Shown here: in pieces, positions 62 to 32,046 of the stretch
How the letters are laid out: each line of letters opens with the position of its first letter
Numbering within the stretch: the first letter of the stretch is position 1
NCBI GenBank assembly: GCA_043804695.1
Contig: JAZDIV010000060.1
Location: 1 to 33,487 of the forward strand
Source: PVC group bacterium
Lineage (GTDB): Bacteria; Auribacterota; Erginobacteria; Erginobacterales; Erginobacteraceae
Reading direction: 5' to 3'
DNA length: 33,487 nucleotides
The notes under the pieces: generated by a model
Told to the model about the DNA's origin: nothing
Seen by the model: only the letters and a program-made list of their open reading frames with translations
The model's database searches: none
Program-made: the position numbers and the translations under genes

Positions 62-86
62 TAAAATTTTCCTCCGGAAAATTTTA
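62..86 (-). promoter_or_regulatory. Start-proximal hairpin containing the Shine-Dalgarno sequence
   Basis: Minus strand TAAAATTTTCC-GGA-GGAAAATTTTA-ATG: perfect 11-bp stem abutting the ATG. Confidence 0.6.
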
Positions 87-198
87 GTCTGAATTCCTAT
101 CGGTTGAAGCAATATCTTACATTAACATATCATCCCTGTAATGAGAACCGCCGATATCATTACGATGGATTTTGCTGGTTACCGCTCACCGCCCCCGG

Positions 199-257
199 GC
201 GCTATGCGCTATGCGCCATGCCCTCTGCTTATTGCGTACCGATTACCGATTACTGAT
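199..257. repeat. Heptamer tandem arrays (GCGCTAT)x3 and (TACCGAT)x3, degenerate
   Basis: gcgctat gcgctat gcgccat at 199-219; taccgat taccgat tactgat at 237-257. Confidence 0.8.
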
Positions 258-276
258 CCCCGGCTATCCACCCTAT

Positions 277-987
277 CTATCCTTCCGTCTTCTCCTCCCG
301 TGTCACTGATGGAGGCGCATTGCTCACCAGGCTGTTCTTATGCAGCCGGGCGAAGAAAGGGCTCAGCGTCGTATTCGGCAGGACCCGCACGCCGTCGCCG
401 ATCCGGATCGCGGCCAGAGACACCCCCGATGCGAGGATGCAGTCATCGCCGATCCGGGCCAGGCCGACCCGGAACTTTCCGGCCCCCTCGTAGGCATGGG
501 TCGAGATCTTGCAGAACGCCCCGATCAGGGAATTGTCTCCGATCGAGATCAGTTCCGGGCAGAAGTGATCGAGCCAGCAGGCCTGCATGATCTCGGTGTT
601 CTTCCCGATCCGGACGCCGGCCCATCGATAGAGGCGGTTCTTCAGCCGCCCCCCCCGGAGCAGCATCGCTGAAAGCACCAGCCAGCTCAGCGGCAGCCGG
701 ATCCAGAAGGGCCGGTTCAGTGCCGTCCAGTGGATGCGGTTACTCTCGGAGAGCTTCCCCAGGCCGTCGAAGGTGTAGGAGTTCGTCCTGCCCCGGAGAA
801 AAGCCCGCAGGCTCTCACTGCCTGGCGGGGTGTCCGGGTCAAGCTCCCGGACATCGACCGGTTCCGCCGCCGAGGACCGGGCCAGCGTGATGATCCGTCC
901 TTTCTTCCGGCCCAGCCGGATGGCCCGACGGATGATCCGGGTAACGACCCTGCGTAAGGCGTCATCTATATCATGTTTATCCGTCAT
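277..987 (-). CDS. Hexapeptide-repeat (left-handed beta-helix) acyltransferase, YvoF-like
   Basis: KNRLYRWAGVRIGKN, PELISIGDNSLIG and IGDDCIL...IGDG repeats; about 80-aa extra N-terminal region. Confidence 0.8.
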   Translation of the reverse strand: MTDKHDIDDALRRVVTRIIRRAIRLGRKKGRIITLARSSAAEPVDVRELDPDTPPGSESLRAFLRGRTNSYTFDGLGKLSESNRIHWTALNRPFWIRLPLSWLVLSAMLLRGGRLKNRLYRWAGVRIGKNTEIMQACWLDHFCPELISIGDNSLIGAFCKISTHAYEGAGKFRVGLARIGDDCILASGVSLAAIRIGDGVRVLPNTTLSPFFARLHKNSLVSNAPPSVTREEKTEG

Positions 988-1023
988 TTTTCACACAATG
1001 CTCCAGTGTTCATTGATAATGAA

Positions 1024-1046
1024 ATAATCGGTGATCAGTAATCAGT
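1024..1046. repeat. Heptamer array (GTAATCA-like)x3, reverse complement of the TACCGAT family
   Basis: ataatcg gtgatca gtaatca gt. Confidence 0.65.
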
Positions 1047-1080
1047 TTGACCTGACTCGCATTAACGGATCGCTGACTAT

Positions 1081-1107
1081 TTAAAATTTTTCGAAGAAAA
1101 ATTTTAA
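1081..1107. repeat. AT-rich perfect hairpin overlapping the purH stop codon
   Basis: ttaaaatttttc-gaa-gaaaaattttaa, 12-bp stem; its arms resemble those of the 62-86 hairpin. Confidence 0.7.
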
Positions 1108-2687
1108 TGTCTAAAATGCCGGATGCCGGTGAAGACCATGGTGATCCCGTGCTCCCGCGCCACCGCGACCGACTCGCCGTCCCGGATGGAGCCCCCCGGC
1201 TGGACAATGGCCCGCACCCCGTTCTCGGCCGCCAAATCCACCACGTCCCGGAAGGGGAAGAAGGCGTCCGAGGCCATGACCGTTCCCTTGACCTCCAGCC
1301 CGGCCCGGCGGGCTTTCTCGACCGCCAGGCGGGCGGCATCGATCCGGCTCATCTGGCCGGCGCCGATCCCGACGGTGGCGGTCCCCCGCCCGAGGACGAC
1401 CGCGTTGGACCGGGTGTGCTTGCAGACCGTCCAGGCGAACGAGAGCGCGGCCCACTCGGCGGGAGACGGCGGCGACCCGGCAACCACTTTCAGGGAATCA
1501 GCGTCCCAGTGGAGCAGGTCGGTTTCCTGGACCAGCATCCCTCCATAGACGGACCGGCAGGACCGGTGAGGGGGACGGCGGCGGAGAGGCCCCGATTCCA
1601 GAACCCGCAGGTTCTTCTTCCGGGCCAGAGTTTCCAGCGCTCCCGGGGTGAAGGCGGGAGCGAGAAGCGCCTCGACGAAAGTCGAGGTCACCTCGACGGC
1701 GACCTCTTCCCCGATTTCCCGGTTGAAGGCGACCACGCTCCCGAAAGCGGATAGTGGATCAGTGGCCCGGGCCCGGCGATAACTCTCGAGCAGGGTTTCC
1801 CCGACCGTAGCCCCGCACGGGTTATTATGCTTGATGATCACGGATGCCGGGCTTTCCAGTTCCAGGACCAGGGAGAGCGCGTTCTCCAGATCGAGGATAT
1901 TGTTATAGGAGAGTTCCTTCCCCTGAAGCCGGCGGGCATTACAGATCGAACTTCCGACTTCCGGCGCCGGGCTCCTGATTCCTGACTCCTGTACATACAG
2001 TGCCGCTTCCTGGTGGCGGTTCTCCCCGTAGCGAAGCCTCTGCTTCAAAGAGCAGGCCAGCTCCAGCCGGGCAGGGAAATCTCCCGGTTTCTCCCCGGCC
2101 AGGAAAGCGGAAATCATGCCGTCATACCGGGAAGCGGTCAGGAAGGCCTTCGCCGCCAGCCGGCGCCTGGTCGCAGGCGAAACACTCCCTCCACCGTTCC
2201 TCATTTCTTCCATCACCGCGCTGTAATCGGCGGGAGCGCTGACGACCGTTACCGACCGGTAATTCTTGGCCCCCGCCCGCAGCAGGGACACGCCGCCGAT
2301 GTCGATGAACTCCACCAGGGTATCCTCATCAAACTGCCCGTTGTTCAGCTTGTCTTCGAACGGGTACAGGTTGATCGCCAGGAAATCGATCGGCTCGATG
2401 GCCGCCTTGACCAGCTCGGCCATATGTTCCGGATTATCCCGCCGCGCTAAAAGTCCCCCGTGGACTTTCGGATGGAGAGACTTCACCCGCCCGTCCAGCA
2501 TCTCCGGAAAGCCGGTATAGTCCGCCAGTCTCTTCACCTTGATCCCCTCCTCTTCCAGGGCCCGGGCGGTGCCCCCGGTCGAGATGATCTCGAAACCCAT
2601 CCCTGCCAGCGCCGTGCCCAGTTCCAGAAGCCCGGTCTTGTCGGAAACACTGATCAATGCGGTCCGCTTGAGATTATTCATACCCAT
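1104..2687 (-). CDS. purH: Bifunctional AICAR transformylase/IMP cyclohydrolase
   Basis: ALISVSDKTG, STGGT, GRVKSLHP, IDIGG, LRYGEN, KHNNPCG, GQMSR, SDAFFPF and C-terminal RHFRH. Confidence 0.98.
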   Translation of the reverse strand: MGMNNLKRTALISVSDKTGLLELGTALAGMGFEIISTGGTARALEEEGIKVKRLADYTGFPEMLDGRVKSLHPKVHGGLLARRDNPEHMAELVKAAIEPIDFLAINLYPFEDKLNNGQFDEDTLVEFIDIGGVSLLRAGAKNYRSVTVVSAPADYSAVMEEMRNGGGSVSPATRRRLAAKAFLTASRYDGMISAFLAGEKPGDFPARLELACSLKQRLRYGENRHQEAALYVQESGIRSPAPEVGSSICNARRLQGKELSYNNILDLENALSLVLELESPASVIIKHNNPCGATVGETLLESYRRARATDPLSAFGSVVAFNREIGEEVAVEVTSTFVEALLAPAFTPGALETLARKKNLRVLESGPLRRRPPHRSCRSVYGGMLVQETDLLHWDADSLKVVAGSPPSPAEWAALSFAWTVCKHTRSNAVVLGRGTATVGIGAGQMSRIDAARLAVEKARRAGLEVKGTVMASDAFFPFRDVVDLAAENGVRAIVQPGGSIRDGESVAVAREHGITMVFTGIRHFRH

Positions 2688-2719
2688 AGATTGCTTCGTC
2701 GCTCCGTTCCTCGCAATGA
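2688..2719. repeat. Half REP-like element (GATTGCTTC...CTCGCAATGA family) abutting the first purH ATG
   Basis: agattgcttcgtcgctccgttcctcgcaatga; same family as the right arm at 20797-20855. Confidence 0.75.
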
Positions 2720-2842
2720 TGGGGTTAAATGACGCAATTTATGAGACGGCACACTAGCTTGATCCCTTTGATTTATCAAAAAAGTCACCCCGATAAGTCC
2801 GGAACGGCTCTTTTAGGGAGTCATAGAAAGAATTGTCTCATC

Positions 2843-2933
2843 GGGCATTAGATATTTTACATTCTTTCGGGTTTCGCTCCGCCCCGATGCAATCGGGGTC
2901 ATTCGGGATTCGTCATTTTTCGATGTTCGATGT
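2843..2933. repeat. Degenerate short-period repeat arm with an embedded CCCCGAT-gca-ATCGGGG hairpin
   Basis: tttcgggtttcg...tcattcgggattcgtcatttttcgatgttcgatg; hairpin at 2882-2898. Confidence 0.5.
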
Positions 2934-2946
2934 CCATAGTTGTATA

Positions 2947-3648
2947 TTATACGTCTCTAATCACCTTCAGATACTGCTCAAAGATCCTCACCCTCTCCGG
3001 CGTCCCGATATCGTAAAACTTCCGTTCGACGGGCCAGGCACCCAGTTCCCCCGCTTCGATCAGCCGGGGATACAGGTCCTCCTCCAAGGAGAAAACGTCC
3101 TCCGGAGGGAAGTAATCCGCGATGGCCTTCCGTGCCATCCGGACACCGGCATCGGCGTGCGTCAGTGAAGCCGCCGGGCTATCCGCCGCGCAAGCCGTGA
3201 TTCTCCCCCCCTCCACCCGGAGGTTGGGAGGCAGTCCGGGGGCTTCCCCCGGGAAGACGCTTACCATCATCAAGGCCTTCGTCTTCTCGAACGCGACCCG
3301 GAGTTGCCGGTAATCGGCCGGCAGAAGCGTGTCCCCGTTGAGGAGAAAAAACGCGTCTTCGAGCTTCGGCCAGGCCCGCTTGAGTGCGCCCCCCGTCCCC
3401 AGGGGCCTGTCCTCAAGCGAATAATCGATCCGCAGGCCCAGACGATCCCCGTCTCCAAAATAGGATTCGATCATCTCGCCCCGGTAACCGGTACAGAGCA
3501 GTATCCCGGTAACCCCGGTCCGGCGGAGATAGACGATAAGATGTTCCAGAAACGGGCGTCCCCCGATCTCGACCATCCCTTTGGGAACACTATCCGTCAC
3601 CGGCCGCAGCCTGGTCCCTCGCCCCCCGGTTACAATTACCGCTTGCAT
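2947..3648 (-). CDS. Sugar-phosphate nucleotidyltransferase (NTP_transferase; HddC/mannose-1-phosphate guanylyltransferase-like)
   Basis: GGRGTRL, PKGMVEIGGRPFLEH, EDRPLGTGGA, LNGDT, FYDIGTPE. Confidence 0.9.
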   Translation of the reverse strand: MQAVIVTGGRGTRLRPVTDSVPKGMVEIGGRPFLEHLIVYLRRTGVTGILLCTGYRGEMIESYFGDGDRLGLRIDYSLEDRPLGTGGALKRAWPKLEDAFFLLNGDTLLPADYRQLRVAFEKTKALMMVSVFPGEAPGLPPNLRVEGGRITACAADSPAASLTHADAGVRMARKAIADYFPPEDVFSLEEDLYPRLIEAGELGAWPVERKFYDIGTPERVRIFEQYLKVIRDV

Positions 3649-3650
3649 TA

Positions 3651-3677
3651 TAAGTTAGCGTCTCCGGCGCTAACTTA
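3651..3677 (-). promoter_or_regulatory. Start-proximal TTAGC...GCTAA hairpin
   Basis: Minus strand TAAGTTAGCG-CCGGAGA-CGCTAACTTA-TA-ATG; GGAG lies in the loop. Confidence 0.65.
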
Positions 3678-3947
3678 GTGAAAATGCATTGAAGCTAACG
3701 CCACTTGATAAAGTTCTTAGATTATACAATAATTATTTGAACTATTCTATTCTTAAACTCCGAAGGGGAAGGAATAGGTTAACGCCATTTCAACCTGAAG
3801 TCAAAAAGATATCTCAGACAACGGACGATCAACTTGAGATCGGGAAGCCGGTCCGGAAGAAGCGGCTGAAGAAAAAAGAATAAACGTCCAACACCAAATG
3901 AATCAGGGAAGGGTGACAGTCAATAATCCAGGGCGTCAGATTTGTTT

Positions 3948-4370
3948 TTATCCGGCACCAGAGGCCCATTCGTGCGAATATACCTCTATGTTATTTGACT
4001 GGAACGGATATTCAACGCCGAACAGACGGCACTGCCGTTGAAACTGGTTTCGGTCATACTCCCCATAGCTCGCCCAGGTACGCTTCCTGGTAATATATTT
4101 CTCCCGGAGCACTCCACAGGCCGCCTCAAAGGACATACCTTTGTTCACCTGCTCCTGAGTCAATGTAGTGAAATGGGTGCAGAACTCGCTCACGGTAGAA
4201 TGATCGGGCCGAACCAGGATACTCTCCTTCCCCAGTCGTTTCCCCGTGCTGATCTCAAGCGGGCAAATCCCGATCTCAATGATCTCGTTCACCTGTTCAT
4301 CAGGTGCTTTGCCCTCCCAACAGGTTGCCTCCACGTCAACGACGATAATTTGGTCCAGGAGCTTAGACAT
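3948..4370 (-). pseudogene. DEDDh 3'-5' exonuclease (ERI-1/KapD-like), C-terminally truncated
   Basis: ExoI VVDVEATCW and ExoII WASYGEYDRNQF are present. Family resemblance stops after EYPF. No ExoIII H-x4-D motif, and the other two frames stop within a few codons. Confidence 0.7.
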
Positions 4371-4404
4371 CAGATACGATATTCGGAATAGGACTTAACG
4401 CAGG

Positions 4405-5343: not shown

Positions 5344-5368
5344 CTTTGTCTTCTTCGTTCATTATTCC

Positions 5369-8170: not shown

Positions 8171-8637
8171 CGGTTCCTGGCCGGATTATCCGGCGGCTCT
8201 CTTTCTATTTGATATAACCCCAGCGTATCATCAAGCATAATCTTTTTGCCCCTGACCTTGAAATCGGGGAAATCCTTATAGATCAACACATAGTCGATTG
8301 ACGGAAACGCGGTAAGGGGTGCGTCCCCCCGGTATATGATTTCCCGAGGACAGAGAAAATAATTGTTCCGCCATAACCAATCAAACGGTCTGTACTCTCT
8401 TTCCCGGGGAGGGAACAGGATCCGTGCCCGTTCAGGCGTGTTTCTCTCAATGAATTCCATATAGACCGCGTAATCTCCCTGGAGCAACCAGTGTTTTTCT
8501 TTAAGAGAGAGACCAGGCCGGGCCAGGATGGGCCCCATCTGAGAAACGATGAAGCCGGAGACGGTCGCCAGGTTGACGGCCAGGGCGACCAGAACCGCGA
8601 AAACGATCACCAGTTTAAGTGCGGCCTTGAAAATCAT
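8167..8637 (-). CDS. Membrane-anchored hypothetical protein, translationally coupled to the downstream GT-C
   Basis: N-terminal TM; FIERNTPERARILF motif like GT-C C-terminal soluble domains; 4-nt overlap with the next gene. Confidence 0.75.
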   Translation of the reverse strand: MIFKAALKLVIVFAVLVALAVNLATVSGFIVSQMGPILARPGLSLKEKHWLLQGDYAVYMEFIERNTPERARILFPPREREYRPFDWLWRNNYFLCPREIIYRGDAPLTAFPSIDYVLIYKDFPDFKVRGKKIMLDDTLGLYQIEREPPDNPARNR

Positions 8638-8673
8638 TATTTAATAAATCAGCTCGCTTCGCTCGTAACTTTT

Positions 8674-8764
8674 GCCACTAAGACACCAAGACACCAAGAA
8701 AAAACCAAATAAGATGAGTTTTACTCTTTTTATTCTATTCTTGGTGCCTTTGTGCCTTGGTGGC
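8674..8764. repeat. GCCACTAAGACACCAAG...CTTGGTGGC inverted-repeat element, copy 1
   Basis: Arms near-identical to 22151-22250; AT-rich unique core. Confidence 0.85.
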
Positions 8765-8796
8765 TAATATTAATTTTTTCACATAAAAATAATATC

Positions 8797-14039: not shown

Positions 14040-17000
14040 TTATGAACGGGGCTGAATTGCTATCTCCACATAATCCAGCATCAGGCCCAGTTCCCTCCTA
14101 TCATCGGTCGGGAGATAATCGCAGGGTCGCCAGGGATCGACCTCAAAGACCAGCGAGGCCACCCCCGTTACCGGGACCTCCGGGGGGAGAGCGATCCGCA
14201 CCCGGTTCTCGCCCGCCTCCAGCGGAAACTCATGCAGCAATGCACCGTCCAGGTACATCCTTACCGTGGCCGGGAGGGCCGCCTCCGGCCGGACACCGAC
14301 GTAGCCTGCCGTCAGTATAAGTTCATCATCCGCCTCTCTGACCAGCGGGAGAAAAATCTCGGCCCGGGGGCCAGTCCAGCAGACCGGGATCTCGTCCAGG
14401 TGCCTCTCGGGGGGGAAGAAGCCCTCGCCCATATAGTCCTCCGATTCCGGCGCCCCGATATCTATCCTAAAAGGATAAACCAGCGGCTCCAGGATACTGA
14501 CATGGAAAAGACCGCCGGAGGCGGGAAGCAGTTTTAATTCACTGATGGGCCGGGCGATCTCTTCCGGGCTTAAGATGTGCCAGACAATGCCGTCATTGAG
14601 GAGACTCCGCAGGCGCCGGCGGTTTAACTCCAGATAGCGCTCATCCCCGGCGCCGAAAAGTTTGACTCCCATCTTCAGAAGATAGGGCTGCTCCCGGGGT
14701 GTCGGGAGGTCGATCTGATCGAACCACCCGGCAATCCGCAGGGAGCTGATCAGGAGCTCCCCGGCTTTTGGTCGGGTCGGACGGATGGTAAGGCATGCGA
14801 TATTCCGGTCGCCGTCGGACACCGGAAGCTCAACACGGGCCGTCTGCCATTCCTGGTTCGAAAGGATCGGCAGGAAACCGACCGGATTATCGTTCAACAA
14901 AACCTCCCATGAATCAGCGCCGGCCTTACCGGAGGGACACTGGAGGCGAAACTCGGCCGTGAAGAGACACTGTGAGAACGCCGGGGTCGGAATTTTGATG
15001 TCACCCCGATGGGTCAGACTCCGCCAGTTAACCTTATAGACATGGGAGTAATAAAAGGCATCAGAGAGAAAAATACGATCCGGAACGGAAGCGGCGGGTC
15101 CGAGCCGTATTACATAGTCCCGTCCCAGCCATTGCAGGTCTACGAAGATATCCTCCGGAAGTCCCTGGTCGGAGGTGAACCGGACCGCCGACCGGGGACA
15201 GGAATGGGCAGCGGCCGAGAGGGGGAAATAGTTGACGAAGTTATCAATCTTTTCGTTCCATTCCTCTCCGGGCAGGAATGCCTCAATCCGGGTCCGGCGC
15301 GGGAGGGAGTCCCGGACCCGGTAAAAGTTCACGGTCAGAAGGTAATCCACGGGGGCCGGTGTCGCCAGGTCGAGGGTGATCTCATTCTCATCCCAGCGCC
15401 GTATCGAGTAGACGGTACAGACCGCCCGCCCGAATTTGCCTTCCAGATGATACCGGTCCCCGGGGAGCCGGAGGAGAGGAGAAACGGTGAAATAATCCTG
15501 AATATACGGAATATAAGCGGCCGCGCTGCGTTTTCCCCGGTTATCGATGATGTAAAGATTGAACCCCTCTCTCATCAGGAGGTCGTAGGCCTCGCCGTAA
15601 TCCGGGATGAACTGCTCCAGGTCCGACGGGCGCAAGGAATGGCTCCCGGTAAAGAGGTCCAGGCTCTGGCTCAGGAACTTGGTAGCGAAAATGATGGAGG
15701 GCGGCTTCAATACGGCACCCAGGTCATTTCGCAGCCGGCGGGCCTCCGATAACTGGAAGAGCTTACCCTTGTAGAAGAGCACCGGTGACGAGGCGAGGAT
15801 GACGGAAGCGAAAAGGGCCAGATTAAAGATGATGAGGCGATGCCGCACGGGACGGCGGACGGTCTGCCGGTACCAGAGGAAGAGAAGCGCCAGGGCGGTG
15901 AGCAGAACAGCGACATACTGAAGCTGGACGTCCCAGTCGAAGCGATGAGGGTAGCGCGGGTTGAGGCAGCGGAAGAGAAAATCCCCCGCCACCAGGCCAA
16001 CGGCCGCGAGTATCCGGAGAGAGACAAGCGACCGGCGCCGGGATGGTCCGGGTTCATCCCCGCACGAGAGAAGCGAGCCGATCGCTCCCATGATGATGAT
16101 GGTCATCAGGGGGTAGAGGGGAATGAGGTACCTCTCCAGAGGACGAACCCACCCGCTGTAAAAGACCAGGAAGGTGACGATCGCCGGAAAGAAGAGGAGG
16201 CGGGTCTCGTCCTTTTTCCACTCCCCGACCAGCCCGGAGAGGAAAAGAAGGACGAAAAGGGGGCCGAAGGTCACCAGAAGGTGGAACATCATCGGCCAGA
16301 TCGCCGCGTGAATGTTACCGATCCCCCATCCGGAGGTCCTTTTCGTCAGGATGTCCCCTATCCTCCGGGCCAGCCGGATCAGTGTGTTCTCCCCGCTCTC
16401 CGGGGCCGATTCGGTCACGGTCTCCACGTGAATCTCGTGGATCTGGGGCGGTTTGAAAATAGATCCGCTGATGGAATGATTCTGATAGAGGGCCGGAGAG
16501 AGTCCGATCCCAATCGAGATGACGGCGGCGAAGAGAGCGATGCCTGTCCTCAACGAGCGCTCCCCCTTCACCAGCCGGACCAGGAAATACAATCCGGCGG
16601 GGAGCACCATTAAAATATTCGGGGTGCGGATCGCGGCGGAGAAACCCAGGAAAAGGCCCGAGACCATGACTCGGCCGATCGCCGGCACTTTCCTCCCCCG
16701 GAAGGAGAGAACCAGGAAATAAATCCCCGCCGTCAGGCAGAAGAGCGAGGCCACGTCCCCATGAGGGGTCACGCTCAACTGCCAGACTTCTTCGATCAGC
16801 AGGAAAAAGAGCAGAGCAGCGCCCAGAGAAAGAGCCCGGCGGTCCGGCCGGCCGGAAAAATAGAGGTTTCCCAGCAGATAGATGATCAGCAGAAGCGCGC
16901 TGTAAATAAAGAAATTAGCGAAAAAGACGCCGGACAGGCCGAAGAGAGCGAGGAAAGCGGCCAGGATCAGGGGATAGCCGATCGCGTACTTGCAGAATAT

Positions 17001-17465: not shown

Positions 17466-20400
17466 TTAGTGATACTCAATCCGCACCTTGTCCAGTAGAA
17501 CACCCAGTTCACGGCTATCCGTGATCTCGTAATAATGAGAGGGCTGCCAGGCGGGAACCGTCAGTTCCAGAGTTGCCAGACGGGAGGGCCGGTCGGATAC
17601 GGGGATCGAACACCGGTACGTCCCTCCCTCCTCTTCCAGCGGGAACGTCTCCAGTTTCCGGCCGTCGATGGAGACGGACAGTTTACGGGAATCGGCGGGA
17701 ACGGAGGCAGGAGGGCCGGCCAGGATCTCCAGGGAAAGTGCGATCTTTTCTCCCCTCCGGCTGAAGAGCGGGACCTCCAGGGACGCCGTCCCGGCTGTCC
17801 ACCGGGCCAGCTCTTTCCCCTGAAAAAGTTCGGGATCATAGAACCCGTCCTCGATGAATGCCCAGTCCGCCTCTCCCCCCACGTCAATCACAAGATCTTC
17901 GCCGGGGCGCGCCGGAACAGGCCGGGTCCGGAAAAATGCGGGGCGGCCGGCGGCGACCGACTCGACTCTCAATTCGGTGACCGGGACCTGTACCTGGCCG
18001 GGATCAAGGAGCAGCCGCTGGACCCCACCTTTGACATTATCCTTTAAGATCCCGCCGTCAACAAAGATCCGGTACGGACCCCCCTCGCCCGGGGCCCCCG
18101 GCGGGGAGCGGATCTCGAAGGCGGCAAAGCAATCTTCCTTGACCGACGTCTCCAGAAGCACCCGCGTGAGCCATCTTCTCATGCTGACCGCTTTCAGGGC
18201 GAGGGCTCCCCACCAGTCGTCATCGGGATAGGGAACCTGATATCCATCCTTTGGGTAGGCCAACAGCTCCAGCCTGCTCTCGACGGAAGAGACGGCGTCG
18301 TCGGGAACGACGAACCTGACTTCTTCCCATCCGCTCACCCGGGAGAGGTCGAGATCGGCGATCTCTTTTCCGTCCAGACTGATTCTCAGGCCGACCGGGC
18401 GGGGGATTTTTTGACCGTTTCTGAGATCGAGCTGACCGATAATCGAGGTATCGGGGATAACAACCGTGGGGACCAGTATCTCAGCGGGCTTCTCCCAGAG
18501 GATCCGGCGGTAATGCCCATCCTGCCAGTGTAAACGCTCGAACCCACTGATCAGGAAGTAATCGGGTATCAGGGCACGATCCCCGAAAGTGATCGTATAG
18601 GGCGCCCAGACGCTTTGAATCGAAAAATCCATCTGCCGCGGGAGGGGCTGATCGGACCGGATGGCAAATACGGATCGGGGGGAATGAAGAAGGCGGGCGG
18701 GCAGTTCGATATAATTGATACTATCCCGGAGGGCACTGTCCAGACGGGAGCCGTCGAGCAATACCTCAACCCGGGAGCGGTCGCCGTAATCGGCCCAGAT
18801 CGTCCGGGCGTTCAACGTCATCAGGTAATCTTCCCCCTCCTTCAGATCGGTGATGACCGTCTCCACCTCTTTCCGGTTCCATGGTTCTATCCGGTAGAGA
18901 GTACAGACCGGCTGGCCGAACTGGTCGGCCAGGCAGAAGTCATCCCCGCGCAGGGTTCCGACCGGAGTAACATCAAAGTACCTGCGAAGGATGGGTATGT
19001 ATTTACCCCCTTCCCGCCGTCCGCCGCCGGCGTCGAAGAGGAAGAGGGGGACGGAACGATCGAGCATCCGCCGGCAGCCTTCCCGGAGTTCAACCCCCAC
19101 CCGCTCGATATCGAAAACCCGGATACTGTGGCTCCCGCTGAAGAGGGATATGTACTGGGAGACCGGCTTGGTGGCGAAAATTACCGAACCCGGCGGGGCC
19201 AATCGATCGATCGCCTGCCCGAATTGCCTGGCCTGGGGAAGCTGGAAGAGGCAGCGCGTGGAAAACCACCCCGGTCCGAACTTGACCAGAACGAGGGCAA
19301 AGACCGCGCAGGCCAGGATCAGGTAGCGGGAGGGTGTCTTCCAGCCGCTGCTTTCGCGGGCGGCGATCAGCCAGAGACCGACCGTGAAGGCCAGGACGAA
19401 GAAATCAATTACTCCCAGCCCGTACTTTTGACTGAGGTGGAGGCGGAGCAGGACATCCGCCCCGATCAGAACCGGGCCCGACCAGAGCACCCATTTCCGG
19501 GCGCGTGGGTCGAGGACTTTGCCGACCCCCGCGACCGCCAGCAGAATTAAGAACGGCTGGGCGATCGTCATGTAGCGGACCATCAGGTGAACCCACATGC
19601 TGTAGAAGAGGATAAAGATGAGCGGTATCCCCAGGCAGAGATACTTGATCTCCGGAGATTTCCACCCGGAGATCAGCCCCAGTATAATCAGCGCGGTCAA
19701 AGAGACCCCGTAGAGTTTTCCGAAAAATTTCAAGGTGTCGGGACCGGTGGTCGCGAGAAAACCTATCCAGAGAGGAGCGGGGGATTCTACGTCCTTCACT
19801 TTCAACACCGCCCTCTGGGTAATCTCCGGACGGGGGGGATGAAGAGGATGTCCTTCGGTGGTATAGTTCTGGAGAAAGATCGGGACCAGGCCAACGACGA
19901 AAAAGAAACCGGCCAGCACAACGACCGCCACCCGTCTCGACCAGCGCGCGGGCCCCCGGAGTCGGACCAGGAGATACAGCCCGGCCGGCACACCAACCAG
20001 GATATTCGGCAGCCTGGTCGATCCCGAATACCCCAGGCAGAAAGCTCCCAGCACCAGGGAGAACCATCTGACCCCGGGCCACCGGCTGAGGGCCCGCACC
20101 CCCCAGTAAAGCCCGGCGATGAGGGCGGTCAGCGCCAGGAGGTCCCGGGAAGGCTTGATAGTCAGACCCCAGACCTTTTCGATCAGAATGATGAAGAGAA
20201 ACGATCCGAGCAGGGCCAGAAAGATCCCGTGTCTTCTTTGAGTGAAGATCATCTCCGCCAGTTTGAAGTAAAACCAGAGAAAAACTATCAGGACAAAAAT
20301 ATTGGCGAAATAGACCGCGTCATCGCCGAACACCCTGATGACGCCGGCTAAAAATAAGGGAAAGCCGATTTCGTACTTGCAATACATCCGGCCGTTCTTG

Positions 20401-20645
20401 ACCAGATAATTGCCCTGAAGCACAAAGTGGGACTCGCCGGGGGCCCAGTCGCCCTTGAACCAGTTATAGACGGGGAAATCGCTGTAAAACTTACCCTCCG
20501 CCAGATGGCGGGCAAAATGGACCAGACCGAAAGGATCGGAGCCGAGCGCGGCATAGTAGCCGTCCAGACCGGAGAAGACGACCAGGATTAAAAACAGACC
20601 GAAGAGGGCGTAGACGAAGAGCTTCCCTTTTTGACTCTCTTCCAT
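17466..20645 (-). CDS. GT-C glycosyltransferase paralog C (start moved to ATG 20645, MEESQK)
   Basis: GSDPFG, KYEIGFPLFL, SRDL, TRLPN, VRYM; C-terminal DSRELG. The ORF-track start at 20717 lies inside a repeat element. Confidence 0.82.
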   Translation of the reverse strand: MEESQKGKLFVYALFGLFLILVVFSGLDGYYAALGSDPFGLVHFARHLAEGKFYSDFPVYNWFKGDWAPGESHFVLQGNYLVKNGRMYCKYEIGFPLFLAGVIRVFGDDAVYFANIFVLIVFLWFYFKLAEMIFTQRRHGIFLALLGSFLFIILIEKVWGLTIKPSRDLLALTALIAGLYWGVRALSRWPGVRWFSLVLGAFCLGYSGSTRLPNILVGVPAGLYLLVRLRGPARWSRRVAVVVLAGFFFVVGLVPIFLQNYTTEGHPLHPPRPEITQRAVLKVKDVESPAPLWIGFLATTGPDTLKFFGKLYGVSLTALIILGLISGWKSPEIKYLCLGIPLIFILFYSMWVHLMVRYMTIAQPFLILLAVAGVGKVLDPRARKWVLWSGPVLIGADVLLRLHLSQKYGLGVIDFFVLAFTVGLWLIAARESSGWKTPSRYLILACAVFALVLVKFGPGWFSTRCLFQLPQARQFGQAIDRLAPPGSVIFATKPVSQYISLFSGSHSIRVFDIERVGVELREGCRRMLDRSVPLFLFDAGGGRREGGKYIPILRRYFDVTPVGTLRGDDFCLADQFGQPVCTLYRIEPWNRKEVETVITDLKEGEDYLMTLNARTIWADYGDRSRVEVLLDGSRLDSALRDSINYIELPARLLHSPRSVFAIRSDQPLPRQMDFSIQSVWAPYTITFGDRALIPDYFLISGFERLHWQDGHYRRILWEKPAEILVPTVVIPDTSIIGQLDLRNGQKIPRPVGLRISLDGKEIADLDLSRVSGWEEVRFVVPDDAVSSVESRLELLAYPKDGYQVPYPDDDWWGALALKAVSMRRWLTRVLLETSVKEDCFAAFEIRSPPGAPGEGGPYRIFVDGGILKDNVKGGVQRLLLDPGQVQVPVTELRVESVAAGRPAFFRTRPVPARPGEDLVIDVGGEADWAFIEDGFYDPELFQGKELARWTAGTASLEVPLFSRRGEKIALSLEILAGPPASVPADSRKLSVSIDGRKLETFPLEEEGGTYRCSIPVSDRPSRLATLELTVPAWQPSHYYEITDSRELGVLLDKVRIEYH

Positions 20646-20675
20646 TTTCTGTGGATATATACCGGTATTCAAAAC

Positions 20676-20895
20676 AGGTTCTCTTCTATTTTGTGTGGGT
20701 AATAGATAATAGGTCATTGCGAGGCCGCAGGCCGAAGCAATCTCACTATGTCTATCTTATTACAAACATAATAAAAAATGTTTCTCTCTTTAGTAAGAGA
20801 TTGCTTCGGCGCTTATTGCCCCGAATTCTTCGGGGCAAACGCTTCTCGCAATGACATTGATTGGACATTTACCCACACAAAATGAAGGAGAACCT
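20676..20895. mobile_element. MITE-like element with 27-bp imperfect terminal inverted repeats and nested palindromes
   Basis: aggttctcttctattttgtgtgggtaa (20676-20702) versus ttacccacacaaaatgaaggagaacct (20869-20895), 3 mismatches; no transposase inside. Confidence 0.7.
20713..20855. repeat. REP-like doublet GTCATTGCGAG...GAAGCAATCTC / GAGATTGCTTC...CTCGCAATGAC
   Basis: Arms at 20713-20744 and 20797-20855; the right arm carries hairpin ttgccccgaa-ttc-ttcggggcaa (20816-20838). Confidence 0.85.
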
Positions 20896-20901: not shown

Positions 20902-20928
20902 TAAATTAGCGGCGAAGCCGCTAATTTA
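20902..20928. repeat. TTAGCGGC-GAA-GCCGCTAA hairpin
   Basis: 12-bp perfect stem; 20903-20927 is the exact reverse complement of 31155-31179. Confidence 0.85.
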
Positions 20929-22132: not shown

Positions 22133-22150
22133 AAACTCGCTCTTATTTTT

Positions 22151-22250
22151 GCCACTAAGACACCAAGACACGAAGGAAAATTAAAAAAGTTTCTATTACA
22201 ACCCTTCCTATCATTTTTTAGCTTTCTTGGTGCCTTTGTGCCTTGGTGGC
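22151..22250. repeat. GCCACTAAGACACCAAG...CTTGGTGGC inverted-repeat element, copy 2
   Basis: Right arm ttcttggtgcctttgtgccttggtggc is identical to copy 1; the left arm differs by 1 nt. Confidence 0.85.
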
Positions 22251-22269
22251 TAGTATATAAAATATTTCT

Positions 22270-23860: not shown

Positions 23861-25057
23861 TTACCCCTTCCACCCTTCACATAACTTCACAAACTCATCG
23901 GCTAATTTATCCCATCGATATTTCTCTTCCACCACCCGCAGCCCCTCCTCTCCCATCCGTCGGGAGAGTTCCCGGTCGTCGATCAGCACCGTCATCTTCT
24001 CGACCAGGTCTTCCACGTCGCCCGGGCAGTAAAAAAGCCCGGTCTTCCCCTCCTCGATCACTTCTTCCAGCGCCGGGAGACGGGGCGCCACCACCGAGAG
24101 GCCGCAGGCCCAGTATTCGAACTCCTTCAGGGTCACCCGCCCCCGCGCCGAAACAATATCCGGCAGGATGACCAGGCCGATATCACCGGCCGACATATAC
24201 CGCGCGACCTCCTTCTGGGTCAGCCAGCCTGAAAAGTAAAAGTCATCACTCAATCCGGCCTCCCGGACCCGTTCCTTCAAAGCGGGGATAGCCGTCCCTT
24301 CTCCGATAATCCAGAAAGCCGTCTTGGGTTTGCGGGCAAGAAGCTTTTGGGCGGCAGAGACCAGAAGTTCGGGGCCGTCCTGGGGGTCGATCACCCCCTG
24401 AAAGATCAGGACCGTCTCCTTGCCGGGGGCAAATGCCCGTCTCAGGTCGCCGCTTTCGCACTTCCGGAAGATCCCGAGATCGACCCCGTCACAGACAACA
24501 TCAATCCGGTCCGGGGATGCTCCGTATTCGAGAATGATCTCCTTCATGGCCCGGCTGATGGTAATGATCCGGTCCGATCCCCGGATCGCGGCCGCCTCCA
24601 TCTTTCGCCCGAAAGTCTGGACCAGCGAGAGCCAGCCTCCGGAAGAATAATTGTCAAGATACTCGAAAAGCACATCGGTCAGGTTCAGGACCAGCAGAGG
24701 CTTACCCCCGGTCATTCTCCTGCCCCAGAGCGCCCCGTACCCGGCGATCGTATTATGAGACACGACCAGATCGGGCCGGAAGCTCCCGACCGCCCGGATC
24801 AAACGCTCCATGTTGACAGGATGAGCCAGGAGGTACTTTTTCATCTTGTGCGGGTCCAGCCGGCTGACGGTCTTCAGGCGGACGATCTCCCGGCAGCCCA
24901 GATACTCTTCCGCCTCCCGGTCGGAACTCGCAATCCCGCCGGCGACGCACACTTCATGCTCCTTCCGGCCAAAGGCCTGGATGATATTGGAGATCCGGGG
25001 ACTTCCTCCCCCGCTCAAGGGATAGAGCTCTTCAAAGATGGTTACCAGAACTTTCAT
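23861..25057 (-). CDS. GT4 family (GT-B) glycosyltransferase
   Basis: YPLSGGG, DRIITIS, DGVD, KEFEYWACGLSVV, EEGKTGL, KYRWD. Confidence 0.92.
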   Translation of the reverse strand: MKVLVTIFEELYPLSGGGSPRISNIIQAFGRKEHEVCVAGGIASSDREAEEYLGCREIVRLKTVSRLDPHKMKKYLLAHPVNMERLIRAVGSFRPDLVVSHNTIAGYGALWGRRMTGGKPLLVLNLTDVLFEYLDNYSSGGWLSLVQTFGRKMEAAAIRGSDRIITISRAMKEIILEYGASPDRIDVVCDGVDLGIFRKCESGDLRRAFAPGKETVLIFQGVIDPQDGPELLVSAAQKLLARKPKTAFWIIGEGTAIPALKERVREAGLSDDFYFSGWLTQKEVARYMSAGDIGLVILPDIVSARGRVTLKEFEYWACGLSVVAPRLPALEEVIEEGKTGLFYCPGDVEDLVEKMTVLIDDRELSRRMGEEGLRVVEEKYRWDKLADEFVKLCEGWKG

Positions 25058-25059
25058 TA

Positions 25060-25088
25060 TAAATTAGCTCCCTTCAGTCGCTAATTTA
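25060..25088 (-). promoter_or_regulatory. Start-proximal TTAGC...GCTAA hairpin
   Basis: Minus strand TAAATTAGC-GACTGAAGGGA-GCTAATTTA-TA-ATG; same spacing to ATG as 3651-3677. Confidence 0.65.
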
Positions 25089-25232
25089 GTTAATTTTAGT
25101 TAATTTGACTTTTTAAAGATAAAACAGACCGATATCGGTTAGAGACTCAGTTCAGATCCAACTGTACAATCAGCGGCAGTAAACTCTTAGTATCATAAAA
25201 TACAAACTCACTTTGTTGGTAGTCCCTTTTGC

Positions 25233-25290
25233 TTCTGTTTCGGGATTGCAATAATCGGAAAAATCCGATTATTGCAATCCCGAAACAGAA
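25233..25290. repeat. Perfect 27-bp inverted repeat (4-nt loop) including the 3' end of the TPR/SGNH gene
   Basis: ttctgtttcgggattgcaataatcgga-aaaa-tccgattattgcaatcccgaaacagaa. Confidence 0.9.
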
Positions 25291-26852
25291 AAATACTCCC
25301 TGAATAAAACCCGGACTATATTCTCGGCCAGCAACCTGTTACCCTCTCGCGTGCAGTGGCCGAAGTCAATTGCAAACTTATCTTTAAATAAGCTGGAATA
25401 ATCCGTACGGTTCAACGCCTCTCTAAAGACGGCTTCATTATCCACAAAAATGATGTTATCCTGAGAACCGAGCATTTTTTTCAGGGGACCGATACTTCTG
25501 ACCGGATACTGAACGCTCACCAGCTGAATGCCTCGCTGATCCAGAATTGCTTTCATCCGGCTATAGTTCCGGGAGGTACCCCGGTTATACGTGCTCAGGA
25601 TGAGGCTTCGGGCTTTTTGAAAATACTCCCTGGCTTTTTCCGGTTCCCCCAATTTTTGATATAACTGGCCCATCTCCTTACAGGCCAGATATGAGAAGGG
25701 AAAGCGTTCTATCACCTTTTGATAGACCTCCAGGGCCGCCTGATCATTCCCCTGTTTTTGATGACACAACCCGAGAATGCCATACGCCCACCGGTTATCC
25801 GGATTGATTTCAATCGCCTTCTCGGCTGCCGCTTGCGACTCGGGGAAATTCTTAAACTTCCAGTAACACCAGGCCAAGGCCGTTAACGCCTCATCGTTTA
25901 ACGGATTTAATTCCAGGGCCTTCTGTAACTTCTTCGCCGCGGAACCGTATGAGCGTTTTGACAGGGAAGAAAGTCCCGACACCGTCCAGGCTTCATCGCT
26001 GGAAGGATTTATCGCCAGGGCCTTCAGGCAGTAATCCAACGTCATGGAGTGACTTTGCTGGTTCAGGTAATATCGGGCCGCTCCGATATTCGCCTTTTCG
26101 CTTCGAGGGTCACGTTTAAGAGCCCGGTTAAACATCACCAGAGCTTCTTCATACTGGTTCCGGTCGAGATACAATCTCCCCAATTCAATGTACGGTTTGG
26201 AATCCTCCGGATATTTCCTCAGTTCAGCTCGAAGATTCGCCTCGGTAGTATAATCGTATTCGCACGCTGTGATGAGGTCTCCTTTCGAGGTTTCCGGCAC
26301 GTCCTCCGAAGACAGCGGTTCAAGAAGCCCCGTCTCTCTCAACGTGATCAACCCGTTATCCCATATATAGCGGGCCGCTTTCCAGATTCTCAAATTTCCG
26401 AGAAAACGCTCAAGCTCCCCCGCGTCGGCATCGGTATCGTTATAGAACCCCGGCTTGTTACCCATTCCGTCATTTATGCCCATCATGGCGATAACCATGT
26501 CCGGTTCGTATTGATCAAGCCAGCACTCCAACATCTTCAGTATATAGGCAGTGCTGCAGCCCGGTTTTCCTTGATTGATGACCGTAAATTCCCTGAACGG
26601 CTCTTTCTCATTTAAAATCTTCTCCAGCTGCCGGGGATAGCTGGAGTAATTGTTGCCGCAATAGGTCGTCGATTCCCCCACACACATAATCCGGAATTCG
26701 CTTTTCCCGGCCAGACGGGCTTGATTTGCCCGATCCCGCCGATCCAATACAATAAAACCTCCCAGGCGCAGGCCGATCTCAATAATCAACAACGTAAAAA
26801 CCAGGCTGCCAATGACCAAACCTATCTTCTGTCCGGCGGATGTCTTGGCCAT
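25269..26852 (-). CDS. Membrane-anchored SGNH/GDSL-like protein with inserted TPR repeats
   Basis: N-terminal TM (EIGLR); block I VGESTT, II NQGKPG, III MMGIND; several TPRs; then block V DFGHCT..GN. Confidence 0.85.
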   Translation of the reverse strand: MAKTSAGQKIGLVIGSLVFTLLIIEIGLRLGGFIVLDRRDRANQARLAGKSEFRIMCVGESTTYCGNNYSSYPRQLEKILNEKEPFREFTVINQGKPGCSTAYILKMLECWLDQYEPDMVIAMMGINDGMGNKPGFYNDTDADAGELERFLGNLRIWKAARYIWDNGLITLRETGLLEPLSSEDVPETSKGDLITACEYDYTTEANLRAELRKYPEDSKPYIELGRLYLDRNQYEEALVMFNRALKRDPRSEKANIGAARYYLNQQSHSMTLDYCLKALAINPSSDEAWTVSGLSSLSKRSYGSAAKKLQKALELNPLNDEALTALAWCYWKFKNFPESQAAAEKAIEINPDNRWAYGILGLCHQKQGNDQAALEVYQKVIERFPFSYLACKEMGQLYQKLGEPEKAREYFQKARSLILSTYNRGTSRNYSRMKAILDQRGIQLVSVQYPVRSIGPLKKMLGSQDNIIFVDNEAVFREALNRTDYSSLFKDKFAIDFGHCTREGNRLLAENIVRVLFREYFSVSGLQ

Positions 26853-30920: not shown

Positions 30921-30921
30921 G

Positions 30922-30952
30922 TATTAATTAGCGCCTTCGGCGCTACTTAATA
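30922..30952 (-). promoter_or_regulatory. Start-proximal TAGCGCC-GAA-GGCGCTA hairpin
   Basis: 14-bp stem with one mismatch, ending 1 nt from the ATG. Confidence 0.65.
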
Positions 30953-30955
30953 GTG

Positions 30956-30980
30956 GACCCCGATTGATTCAATCGGGGTC
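30956..30980. repeat. GACCCCGATTGA-t-TCAATCGGGGTC palindrome
   Basis: Same CCCCGA...TCGGGG family as 2882-2898, 20816-20838 and 31121-31138. Confidence 0.8.
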
Positions 30981-31154
30981 TGTTAGTTAACTAAAAAATT
31001 TTCATCGAGGCAACATTATAAAATAGCCTTATAACCTCAGCCAACATGTGCCCCAAAGAATATAATTTATCTATCGGCTTCAGATATTCCATTCTTTTAT
31101 TCAAAATATCACTATCGGGATCCCGACGGATGTCGGGAAAATTCAGAAATAGAA

Positions 31155-31179
31155 AAATTAGCGGCTTCGCCGCTAATTT
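31155..31179. repeat. TTAGCGGC-TTC-GCCGCTAA hairpin
   Basis: Exact inverted copy of 20903-20927. Confidence 0.85.
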
Positions 31180-31243
31180 GATTCTACTTACATTTTCCTG
31201 AACAGATTCAATCAAAATAAAACAAGGATTTAGCCCGGCGAAA

Positions 31244-31278
31244 TACTGATTACCGATTACCGATTACCGATCACTGTT
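31244..31278. repeat. Heptamer tandem array (TACCGAT)x5, degenerate
   Basis: tactgat taccgat taccgat taccgat cactgtt, abutting the acyltransferase stop codon. Confidence 0.85.
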
Positions 31279-32019
31279 TTAAGGTTTTCTCTCCAGCCGG
31301 GAACGGACGTCACGGGCCGGAACGCCGACGGCCACCGCGTATTCCCGGATATCACGATGAACCACCGCCCCGGCTCCAATGACTGCGCCCTTCCCGATCG
31401 TGACCCCTCCCAGAATAACGGCATGGGTCCCTATCCAGACATCTTCGCCGATCACTATCCGGCTGGGAGAACGGTCCTGAAACCGCATCGGCCGTGTCGT
31501 ATCTTCAAAGGTATGGGTCCCGCTGATGATCTCCACCTGGTTGGCGATCAGTGTGTTGTCGCCGATCCGGATATCTCCGCAACCGTAGATAAACGATCCG
31601 GACCCGATATTGACCCTGTCTCCGATCGCCACGCAGCCCTTCTGGGTCCGGATGGTGACCAGCCGGGAGATATGACTATCGGCGCCGACCGTGATTGTCT
31701 CGGCCCCGGCGCCGATATCAAAAAAGCTCCCCTCTCCGATAAAGACCCGGTCTCCCACCAGGAGGCGCCCCGGATTGAAGAACCGGATATTCTTCTCGAA
31801 AAAACATTTCTTCCCCAATCCCCCCAGGAGCAACCGGTAAAACCATCCCCTCAACATACATCCCCCGACGGTGGGAAAGCAGGAAAAGATCGTCAGCAGC
31901 ATTCCCTGCCAGAAAAACCGAACCAGGGAACTGCTTCCGTAAAGCCGTTCCCGGTATTGCCGGAAACTCTCCTTGAAGCCGGCGGACGGTATCGTCCCCT
32001 CACCATCGTAACCAGTCAT
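31279..32019 (-). CDS. Hexapeptide-repeat sugar O-acyltransferase
   Basis: VGDRVFIG, IGDRVNIG, IGDNTLIA, IGEDVWIG, GVTIGKGAVIGAGAVV, VGVPAR. Confidence 0.92.
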   Translation of the reverse strand: MTGYDGEGTIPSAGFKESFRQYRERLYGSSSLVRFFWQGMLLTIFSCFPTVGGCMLRGWFYRLLLGGLGKKCFFEKNIRFFNPGRLLVGDRVFIGEGSFFDIGAGAETITVGADSHISRLVTIRTQKGCVAIGDRVNIGSGSFIYGCGDIRIGDNTLIANQVEIISGTHTFEDTTRPMRFQDRSPSRIVIGEDVWIGTHAVILGGVTIGKGAVIGAGAVVHRDIREYAVAVGVPARDVRSRLERKP

Positions 32020-32046
32020 ATAAGGTAGCTCACTTCGTTCGCAACC

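Follow-up and report, generated by a model that had tools for sequence, protein, structure and literature searches.

Palindromic hairpins with GNA triloops directly upstream of genes in an uncultured Auribacterota lineage

A short palindromic hairpin recurs immediately before start codons in contig JAZDIV010000060.1 of a PVC group bacterium (Auribacterota; assembly GCA_043804695.1), the whole 33,487-nt stretch of which is referred to here as the window. Members of the hairpin family are 23–31 nt long, with a 10–12-bp stem that starts TA, is A/T-rich at its base and G/C-rich at its top, and is closed by a C-GNA-G triloop. The window holds seven strong palindromic hairpins, four of which end 0–2 nt 5' of an ATG on the coding strand (ATGs at 60, 3648, 25057 and 30920). 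In the window and in related genomes the start-adjacent copies share one orientation, the Shine-Dalgarno (SD) sequence is coupled to the loop, and the stem is under selection. The family looks like a reusable start-of-gene signal, apparently undescribed in the literature searched. As to its role, we lean tentatively, at somewhat less than an even chance, towards a dispersed palindrome akin to the repetitive extragenic palindromic (REP) elements that serves as a transcribed 5' leader hairpin, carrying or abutting the SD.

Hairpin copies in the window

Two stem types are found in the window and both are built on one architecture, in whose centre a G-N-A triplet is flanked on each side by two G/C bases that are complementary across it. 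The TTAGCG type reads TAAnTTAGCG, 7 or 9 nt, CGCTAAnTTA (copies 3651, 20902, 25060, 30922 and 31155), and the T-tract type reads TAAAATTTT, 7 nt, AAAATTTTA (copies 62 and 1081). The seven strong copies and two weak sites are as follows.

62–86, minus strand: T-tract type hairpin with an 11-bp stem, loop GGA and GGAGG at the top; its last base abuts the ATG at 60–58 of a P-loop gene truncated by the window edge.
1081–1107, plus strand: T-tract type hairpin, loop GAA on the plus strand, opposite in orientation to the genes around it; takes in the stop codon of purH (1104–1106) and stands 93 nt upstream of the start at 987.
3651–3677, minus strand: TTAGCG type hairpin, loop GGA, one C.A mismatch adjoining the loop; 2 nt 5' of the ATG at 3648 (nucleotidyl transferase).
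20902–20928, plus strand: TTAGCG type hairpin, loop GAA on the plus strand (reversed); 63 nt past the stop of a glycosyltransferase family 2 (GT2) gene and 184 nt upstream of the start at 20717.
25060–25088, minus strand: TTAGCG type variant with a 9-bp outer stem, tandem GA/GA, a 2-bp mini-stem and loop GAA; 2 nt 5' of the ATG at 25057 (glycosyltransferase family 1, GT1).
30922–30952, minus strand: TTAGCG type variant of 14 positions with one conserved G.A mismatch and loop GAA; 1 nt 5' of the ATG at 30920 (B12 radical-SAM / LPG-synthase fusion).
31155–31179, minus strand: TTAGCG type hairpin with a GAA loop, in the middle of the intergenic region and 234 nt upstream of the ATG at 30920.
8653–8665, minus strand: weak site, GCGAAGC core with a 1-bp outer stem; 15 nt 5' of the ATG at 8637.
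32024–32046, minus strand: weak site, GA-AC-GAA-GT-GA core with an interrupted 5-bp outer stem; 4 nt 5' of the ATG at 32019.

Against shuffled sequences the seven strong hairpins gave folding z-scores of -2.7 to -5.7 as RNA and of -4.1 to -6.1 as DNA, the nearest-neighbour DNA folding used here carrying no term for a sheared G.A loop. As RNA, the TTAGCG-type stems fold at -12 to -15.9 kcal/mol and the T-tract types at -6.9 to -8.6 kcal/mol. The pattern TTAGC-N5-13-GCTAA has 4 matches in the window where 0.09 are expected, a count reached in 0 of 100 shuffles, and AAAATTTT-N5-11-AAAATTTT has 2 matches where 0.00 are expected. Triloop hairpins with at least 9 pairs number 11, compared with 1.4 in shuffles. 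The window contains 3,396 nt of intergenic DNA and 21 gene starts, and by our own arithmetic the probability that at least four of seven strong hairpins end 0–2 nt before a coding-strand start is about 3e-7.

The original prediction, which had named eight places in the window, was accurate on the letters: all eight hold the sequences given, and the distances to ATG of 0, 2, 2, 1, 4 and 15 nt are as stated. As hairpins, six of these sites are strong folders while 8653–8665 (z +0.59 as RNA, +0.81 as DNA) and 32024–32046 (z -0.95 and -0.50) fold no better than shuffles, and the strong copy at 31155–31179 had been overlooked. The motif GA-NN-GAA-NN-GA, claimed for three sites, is indeed present at 25060, 32024 and 8653. 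The proposal that the loop presents the SD does not hold as worded, since C-C-GGA-G-G leaves only GGA unpaired, its final two G belonging to the stem.

Relatives in other genomes

Species-representative genomes were scanned with the outer 9+9 bases of the hairpin, the 7-nt centre being left free. This gave 73 loci (numbered with L), of which 31 are in assembly CAWGIE and 10 in CAKZYZ (contig prefixes). Two more are from Candidatus Euphemobacter frigidus (JAVCDH), placed by NCBI in Candidatus Auribacterota, PVC group, and the remainder are mostly single matches in A/T-rich genomes. The 27-mer family was found again in three related assemblies, with the identical 27-mer at many loci in at least four genomes. 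GA-NN-GAA-NN-GA with long outer stems also recurs, at L069 and at one CAWGIE locus. With overlaps merged, the related DNA amounts to 518,562, 107,718 and 22,563 nt, which together with the window makes about 680 kb. Each sampled locus was picked for containing a copy, a choice blind to orientation and gene position, and the copies share descent, meaning that counts are not of independent events. Genes were called by our own codon-statistics heuristic, which matched the manual gene list of the window.

Loop bias, orientation and coupling to the SD

A census of triloop hairpins with at least 8 pairs over the 680 kb returned 316, and 224 of these are intergenic even though 81% of the DNA is coding. 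Loops of the c-GNA-g kind account for 125 of the 316, where about 10 would be expected by our own arithmetic, and are divided among GAA (55), GGA (54) and GCA (13). No tetraloop dominates in the census DNA and RNA-type tetraloops are not enriched. On the GNA strand, an ATG at -2 to +3 nt opens a reading frame of at least 60 codons in 31 of 123 copies, compared with 0 of 124 on the reverse strand; an SD plus start downstream was found in 15 copies on the GNA strand and in 2 on the reverse. Within the class with A/T-rich stems (n=85), 41 precede a start with the GNA on the coding strand and 0 do so in the reverse orientation. The strict filter of the census leaves out window copies 62 (gene cut by the edge), 3651 (52% A+T) and 25060 (internal GA/GA). 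The scan for ATG distance and strand bias that had been set as a test of the original prediction finds 41 copies before starts in the GNA orientation against 0 reversed, and the GNA-loop bias set beside it was borne out as well.

Loop sequence and start layout go together. Where the centre contains GGAG, an ATG follows directly in 23 copies and a separate SD in 2, whereas for other loops the numbers are 8 and 13. In the GGAG-loop copies the ATG stands at 0–3 nt, while those with a GAA or GCA loop are followed by an ordinary SD and a start at 13–19 nt. Because GGAG loops are coupled to a directly adjoining ATG, the GGAG(G) with which the stem is topped presumably serves as the SD.

Genes and RNAs behind the hairpins

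A Pfam family (E ≤ 1e-5) was assigned to 34 of the 43 proteins downstream of hairpins, and since many of the domains begin at residues 1–12 the start codons of these genes are confirmed. Their functions are unrelated and include SecG, a DnaJ-domain protein, MoeA, S20, ProC, GshB, NAD kinase, threonine synthase, EutN and glycosyltransferases. In CAWGIE the hairpin precedes 17 of 423 genes (4.0%) when only non-ascertained copies are counted and 33 of 423 (7.8%) with all copies. Genes for RNA are also preceded: at three of the six tRNA genes in the sampled loci (Gln, Gly and Val) a hairpin ends 0–2 nt before position 1, that of tRNA-Gly having a 19-bp stem and a GGA loop, and at the RNase P RNA gene the hairpin ends about 10 nt before the Rfam match.

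The start-adjacent copies keep at least 51 nt to the upstream gene in 37 of 41 cases, and spacers under 80 nt are found at 4 of 41 compared with 158 of 519 genes overall (30%; p = 0.002). Two start-adjacent copies overlap the stop codon of the upstream gene. Because tRNA genes and the RNase P RNA gene carry a hairpin upstream, it is not purely a translation signal; taken together with the avoidance of tight operon junctions, this suggests that the element marks the 5' side of transcription units and not ribosome-binding sites as such. The notion of a portable initiation or control module is partly supported, in that it fits the strict orientation, the fixed junction with the ATG and the coupling of GGAG to ATG, yet the element is more than a translation device, occurring at RNA genes and avoiding tight intercistronic junctions.

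Selection on the stem

The pairing of the stem is under selection. With the 7-nt centre free, both inner pairs were complementary at 43 of 45 sites in the related set and the loop was GNA or TNC at 42 of 45, compared with 9 of 30 and 3 of 30, respectively, in other genomes. This comparison is unbiased because the search left the centre bases unconstrained. Among 49 TTAGCG-type copies, 98.8% of 588 cells are paired while slid registers give 25–44%; this percentage is circular because the rows were chosen as hairpins. The compensatory changes are not circular: both sides have changed in 8 of the 12 stem pairs, which 0 of 500 shuffles reach. MAFFT set the two stem types out of register, and the pair counts given here are confined to the TTAGCG type.

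CAKZYZ (L023) and CAWGIE have a syntenic block of four genes in common, at 75–92% protein identity, in which the hairpin is kept at 2 of 2 hairpin-bearing starts, a thin sample (n = 2). At one orthologous start the stem carries a compensatory change of A-T to T-A while the loop has changed from GAA to CCC. Across the family several unrelated stem sequences share one design.

Proposed role and alternatives

On the reading we favour, lineage-specific REP-like palindromes would have been recruited as the last 23–31 nt before a gene. Transcription would begin at a promoter in the same intergenic region, so that the sense-strand RNA contains the whole palindrome and may fold it into a 5' leader stem-loop. 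There are two layouts: in one the loop and the first two bases of the 3' stem spell GGAGG with the ATG at 0–3 nt, and in the other a GAA or GCA loop is followed by an ordinary SD and a start at 13–19 nt. Almost no unstructured RNA would then be left between the 5' end and the ribosome-binding site, the tRNA or the body of RNase P RNA. The likeliest function would be a compact, protected 5' end that resists decay from that end, and by tying up part of the SD the hairpin could also set or gate translation initiation.

Several points weigh against a leader hairpin. The main one is that a 12-bp stem (-8.6 to -15.9 kcal/mol as RNA) in which two SD bases are paired and which reaches the AUG sits on housekeeping genes such as secG, rpsT, proC, thrC and nadK, and on tRNAs. 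In E. coli a stable stem over the SD and AUG strongly inhibits initiation, and a leader fully paired up to position +1 of a tRNA should hinder RNase P. Internal mismatches have no sense-strand G.U preference (8 G.T, 6 A.C and 15 other), and the -10-like boxes upstream of the hairpins show no single fixed distance or sharp peak. In the A/T-rich class 44 of the 85 copies lie away from starts: 16 are at most 60 nt past a stop codon (11 of these with the GNA on the opposite strand), 26 are elsewhere in intergenic DNA and 2 are inside predicted genes. The doubt already voiced about copies with GAA on the opposite strand was thus justified, 1081 and 20902 both being reversed. At least two mechanically called starts are false, with a Pfam-supported gene on the other strand: that at window 1081 (opposite purH) and that at position 9998 of CAWGIE contig 17 (opposite a response regulator). 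Finally, in PMC13037366 the c-GNA-g loop is described as optimal for DNA, its RNA counterparts being reported as much less stable. The evidence has an RNA side, in that orientation is tied to the gene and the SD is coupled to the loop sequence, and a DNA side, in that the loop is c-GNA-g, RNA-type tetraloops are unenriched and mismatches lack a G.U preference.

The chief rival would make the palindrome itself a core promoter, with a TAnnnT -10 box in the 5' arm, a G/C discriminator and transcription starting at the loop C|G, so that the RNA would begin GGAGG... or GAAG... and be free of the hairpin. With an unstructured A/U-rich leader, housekeeping genes and tRNAs would bear no inhibitory hairpin and the paradox would vanish. 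TAnnnT is sharply placed at the start of the arm; among start-adjacent copies 40 of 46 have it 4–7 nt ahead of the loop G, compared with 32 of 79 others, and a pyrimidine at -1 with a purine at +1 agrees with the usual start rule. Why the arms pair is not accounted for, as the complementarity and compensatory changes are left unexplained. The other strand has TAnnnT just as often (40 of 46; the asymmetric cases divide 2 against 2), and the hairpin copies lack a -35 or TG extension. Families with GC-rich stems have the GNA loop without any TAnnnT, long-stem variants (17–20 bp) break the geometry, and in two copies the palindrome runs into the stop codon of the gene upstream. We regard a core promoter as distinctly unlikely. 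An account that is unlikely but easier to credit is that of selfish or near-neutral repeats, similar to REP and to bacterial interspersed mosaic elements (BIMEs), which would spread as single-stranded DNA hairpins by a Y1 transposase or template switching and be harmless before genes because they bring their own SD. The c-GNA-g loop, an extraordinarily stable DNA mini-hairpin according to PMC13037366, would suit such a route. So would the identical 27-mer at many loci in at least four genomes, the extragenic location, the mosaics formed with other repeats and the 44 copies away from starts. Neither the orientation at starts (41 against 0) nor the retention at 2 of 2 orthologous starts fits mere spreading, however, and the copies are mostly singletons and not inverted doublets, with arms that begin TA and not with the GTAG head of REP. 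The Y1_Tnp domain, moreover, was found in 0 of 196 small proteins from a sample that represents only about a tenth of a genome. For the other half of the original prediction, an ssDNA recognition end of an inserting element, the evidence is divided: the lack of a Y1 transposase among these 196 proteins and the retention at two orthologous genes stand on one side, the mini-hairpin loop and the near-identity of copies from different genomes on the other.

The hairpins could be binding sites of one global hairpin-binding protein, either a CsrA-like repressor reading a loop GGA over the SD or a reader of GNA triloops on leaders. A GGA loop lies over the SD in 54 of the 316 triloop hairpins, sequence identity across genomes exceeds what structure needs, and tandem arrays of GGA-loop hairpins elsewhere resemble sponge RNAs. 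Yet GAA (55) and GCA (13) loops stand beside GGA (54) while CsrA needs GGA, the leaders of tRNAs and of RNase P RNA have hairpins too, several stem sequences that are unrelated follow one architecture, and the CsrA domain was likewise found in 0 of the 196 small proteins; this proposal seems to us very unlikely. Rather improbable, in our view, is a lineage-specific, genome-wide sense-strand system at gene 5' boundaries of which the hairpin would be the recognition element. A hairpin-specific factor might set, process or shield the 5' ends of mRNA, tRNA precursors and RNase P RNA alike, or transcription in this cellular genome might start by means of a DNA mini-hairpin. The latter would in principle resemble the hairpin promoters of phage N4, on the opposite strand. 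The perfect palindromes with conserved half-sites near gene starts would also be expected of a DNA operator for a dimeric regulator or of a promoter cruciform driven by supercoiling, and GNA loops let small hairpins extrude at physiological supercoiling in phage N4 promoters (PMC4496689). We hold both to be extremely improbable: the centre of the palindrome covaries as a stem and not as a spacer, different stem sequences share one architecture, and neither predicts the loop-strand bias of 41 against 0.

Other candidates were set aside. An archaeal TATA box with leaderless mRNA, suggested by a position at -29, is out as the relatives are bacterial, use SDs and have RNase P RNA of bacterial type A. 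Integron attC sites do not match the 27-bp perfect palindromes or the housekeeping and tRNA neighbours, and most gene junctions lack a copy. Intrinsic terminators, in which a run of U comes after a G/C-rich stem, are out given the 3' flanks (TAATG, TAAGGAG etc.), and in the T-tract stems it is the 5' arm that has the T run, whichever strand is read. The idea that the upstream module encodes a leader peptide was rejected: a 24-codon frame is open in two subfamilies, but the ATG is missing in several copies and by eye the window copy has early stops.

The family was not met with in the databases and the literature searched. The plasmid and phage collections gave no match for window 25040–25300, and Rfam at its gathering score gave 0 matches in the window. 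In six of the loci Rfam detected only tRNA, RNase P RNA and a molybdenum cofactor (Moco) riboswitch, none over a hairpin or leader. The 196 predicted proteins (55–220 aa) that contained neither Y1_Tnp nor CsrA domains came from the fetched loci, about 650 kb of three genomes. The Auribacterota paper PMC9324843 makes no mention of palindromes, hairpins, Shine-Dalgarno, repeats, promoters or CsrA, and no description of the hairpin family was found in the available portions of the literature on Auribacterota, GNA triloops and palindromic, SD or intergenic repeats.

Mosaic intergenic context

The family has probably spread inside larger mosaic intergenic modules. In CAWGIE the hairpin forms the 3' end of a dispersed intergenic module of about 200 nt, which is headed by a hairpin with a 27-bp stem and holds -10-like boxes. 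All copies of the module found by BLAST end in the hairpin, although the sample was itself selected via hairpins. A GATAGT-like box lies about 13 nt upstream of the hairpin and in L027 and L019 a TTGGCA-like box stands 18 nt before it, the L027 example reading TTGGCA-18-GATAGT, 13 nt before the hairpin; such promoter-like boxes speak for a transcribed leader. Boxes of the -10 kind at 7–13 nt upstream are present in some copies only. Two neighbouring features of the window belong to this context.

25233–25290, no strand assigned: perfect 27-bp inverted repeat with a 4-nt loop, overlapping the stop of the gene at 25269–26852.
30956–30980, no strand assigned: GC-rich 11-bp hairpin directly 5' of hairpin 30922; the same pair is also found in L006, L036, L052 and L065.

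The inverted repeat at 25233–25290 is homologous to the long hairpin that heads the CAWGIE module, so that the window spacer 25058–25290 shares the long hairpin with the module, the remainder being similar by eye only. Half-copies of this type of long hairpin directly adjoin GNA hairpins elsewhere.

Further repeats were noted. Two intergenic stretches of the window (8638–8796 and 22140–22269) contain a long imperfect inverted repeat made of short CCAAGGCAC / GTGTCTTGG-like units with an A/T-rich centre. Relatives are found in CAWGIE contig 23 and in CAKZYZ (L070), and the inverted repeat could be a miniature inverted-repeat transposable element or a structured RNA. Tandem AATCGGT-like heptamers follow the stops of both hexapeptide-transferase genes (window 240–276 and 31250–31278), with similar runs in CAWGIE. 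A repeat running from CATTGCGAG to CGAAGCAATCT has three copies, at window 2688–2720, 20795–20860 and 20718–20746; the inverted copy provides the ATG of the gene at 17466–20717 and one copy ends at the purH ATG. Upstream of the weak site 32024, short GTAACC / GGTAAGG repeats occupy window 32050–32180. No other stretch of the window gave a megablast match to a fetched locus; here the match is to L010, at 86% over 126 nt. Repeats of the CCCTATT type likewise precede hairpins in L023 and L041. CAWGIE also contains tandem arrays of three different G/C-rich c-GNA-g hairpins (e.g. L010 at about 16580–16700 and L018 at about 24700–24850), in fixed order at no fewer than nine places and none beside a gene start. 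These may represent a separate dispersed element or small-RNA family.

Genes of the window and other RNAs

Nearly all window genes are on the minus strand and together make up a cell-surface glycosylation cluster: five PMT_2 membrane proteins, GT1 and GT2 transferases, two hexapeptide transferases, two B12 radical-SAM enzymes, a nucleotidyl transferase and purH. Most spacers are A/T-rich (32–50% G+C compared with 50–62% overall). A 215-codon open frame on the plus strand (1107–1754) has an ATG that overlaps the end of the reversed hairpin 1081–1107. As the Pfam support for purH is strong and this frame runs antisense to it, the frame is probably no gene.

The related loci contain a Moco/tungsten riboswitch (L065, 19434–19558) and a type A RNase P RNA (L059, 2110–2506). 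The moeA gene adjoining the Moco riboswitch region has its own GGA hairpin at its start. Between annotated tRNAs in L068 (9589–9751) a stretch similar to the 3' end of a tRNA and a partial second copy of the 5' half of tRNA-Leu adjoin a GTA-loop hairpin; these pieces have no ARAGORN call.

Significance

Should the leader-hairpin reading be correct, an uncultured bacterial lineage would set one conserved structured cassette before an estimated 4–8% of its genes, including housekeeping genes, tRNAs and RNase P RNA. It would be a natural modular leader or ribosome-binding-site part and would offer a test of whether highly used genes can rely on an SD that is locked in a stable stem. The c-GNA-g mini-hairpin, hitherto known from phage and plasmid priming sites and N4 promoters, would also be seen for the first time in use across a cellular genome. 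As a practical matter the hairpin is a lineage marker and helps to fix start codons in assemblies of the lineage.

Comparison with known systems

REP elements and BIMEs are, like the window family, short extragenic palindromes with many near-identical copies that form mosaic blocks and can fold in mRNA, and the mosaic make-up of the hairpin modules is that of enterobacterial BIMEs. REP palindromes have a conserved GT(A/G)G head at the 5' end, whereas the arms of the present hairpins start TA (TAAATT, TAAAAT, TATTTT). The hairpins are mostly single, no REP-associated tyrosine transposase was seen in the sampled DNA, and about half of the copies are directly 5' of starts in strict orientation, carrying the SD.

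Stem-loops near the 5' end or the SD, as proposed here, are also known from the 5' stabilisers of ompA (E. coli) and aprE (B. subtilis) and from SD-sequestering hairpins (thermometers and coupling), the coupling hairpins overlapping the upstream stop codon as two copies do here. Stabilisers and SD-sequestering hairpins are single-gene devices, each with its own sequence, unlike the one sequence family described here, which serves many unrelated genes as well as tRNA and RNase P RNA. RNA thermometers of the fourU/ROSE type are weak, mismatched hairpins over the SD that melt at physiological temperature, while the TTAGCG-type stems are perfect and, at the folding energies given above, too stable for this. 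CsrA/Rsm hairpins expose a GGA in a loop overlapping the SD, similar to the GGA copies. In CsrA/Rsm targets the loop GGA is invariant and the loop is 5–6 nt, whereas the present loop is 3 nt and GAA and GCA occur besides GGA.

The loop itself is the one found in the DNA mini-hairpin d(GCGNAGC) of Hirao and colleagues, a G-N-A loop (N = A, G or C) closed by C-G, and the heptamers GCGAAGC, CCGAAGG and GCGGAGC occur in the hairpins. PMC13037366 terms this mini-hairpin 'extraordinarily stable'. Its natural cases are the phage and plasmid priming sites and N4 promoters, whereas here it is found in cellular chromosomes, with hundreds of copies per genome implied, and the GNA is on the coding strand before genes, atop a further 8–10 bp of A/T-rich stem. 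Promoters of the phage N4 virion RNA polymerase are likewise small GGA or GAA triloop hairpins closed by C-G near the RNA start, located on the template strand at a distance of 11 nt between start and loop centre (PMC4496689 for both and PMC13037366 for the former). In the present family the coding strand carries the GNA in 41 of 41 start-adjacent copies; its stems are longer than those of N4, and it stands before cellular housekeeping genes. Because the GNA strand is opposite to the template strand of N4, the hairpins are not N4-type promoters. The element behaves like a hybrid, part REP/BIME repeat and part 5' stabiliser or SD hairpin, topped by the loop of a DNA mini-hairpin.

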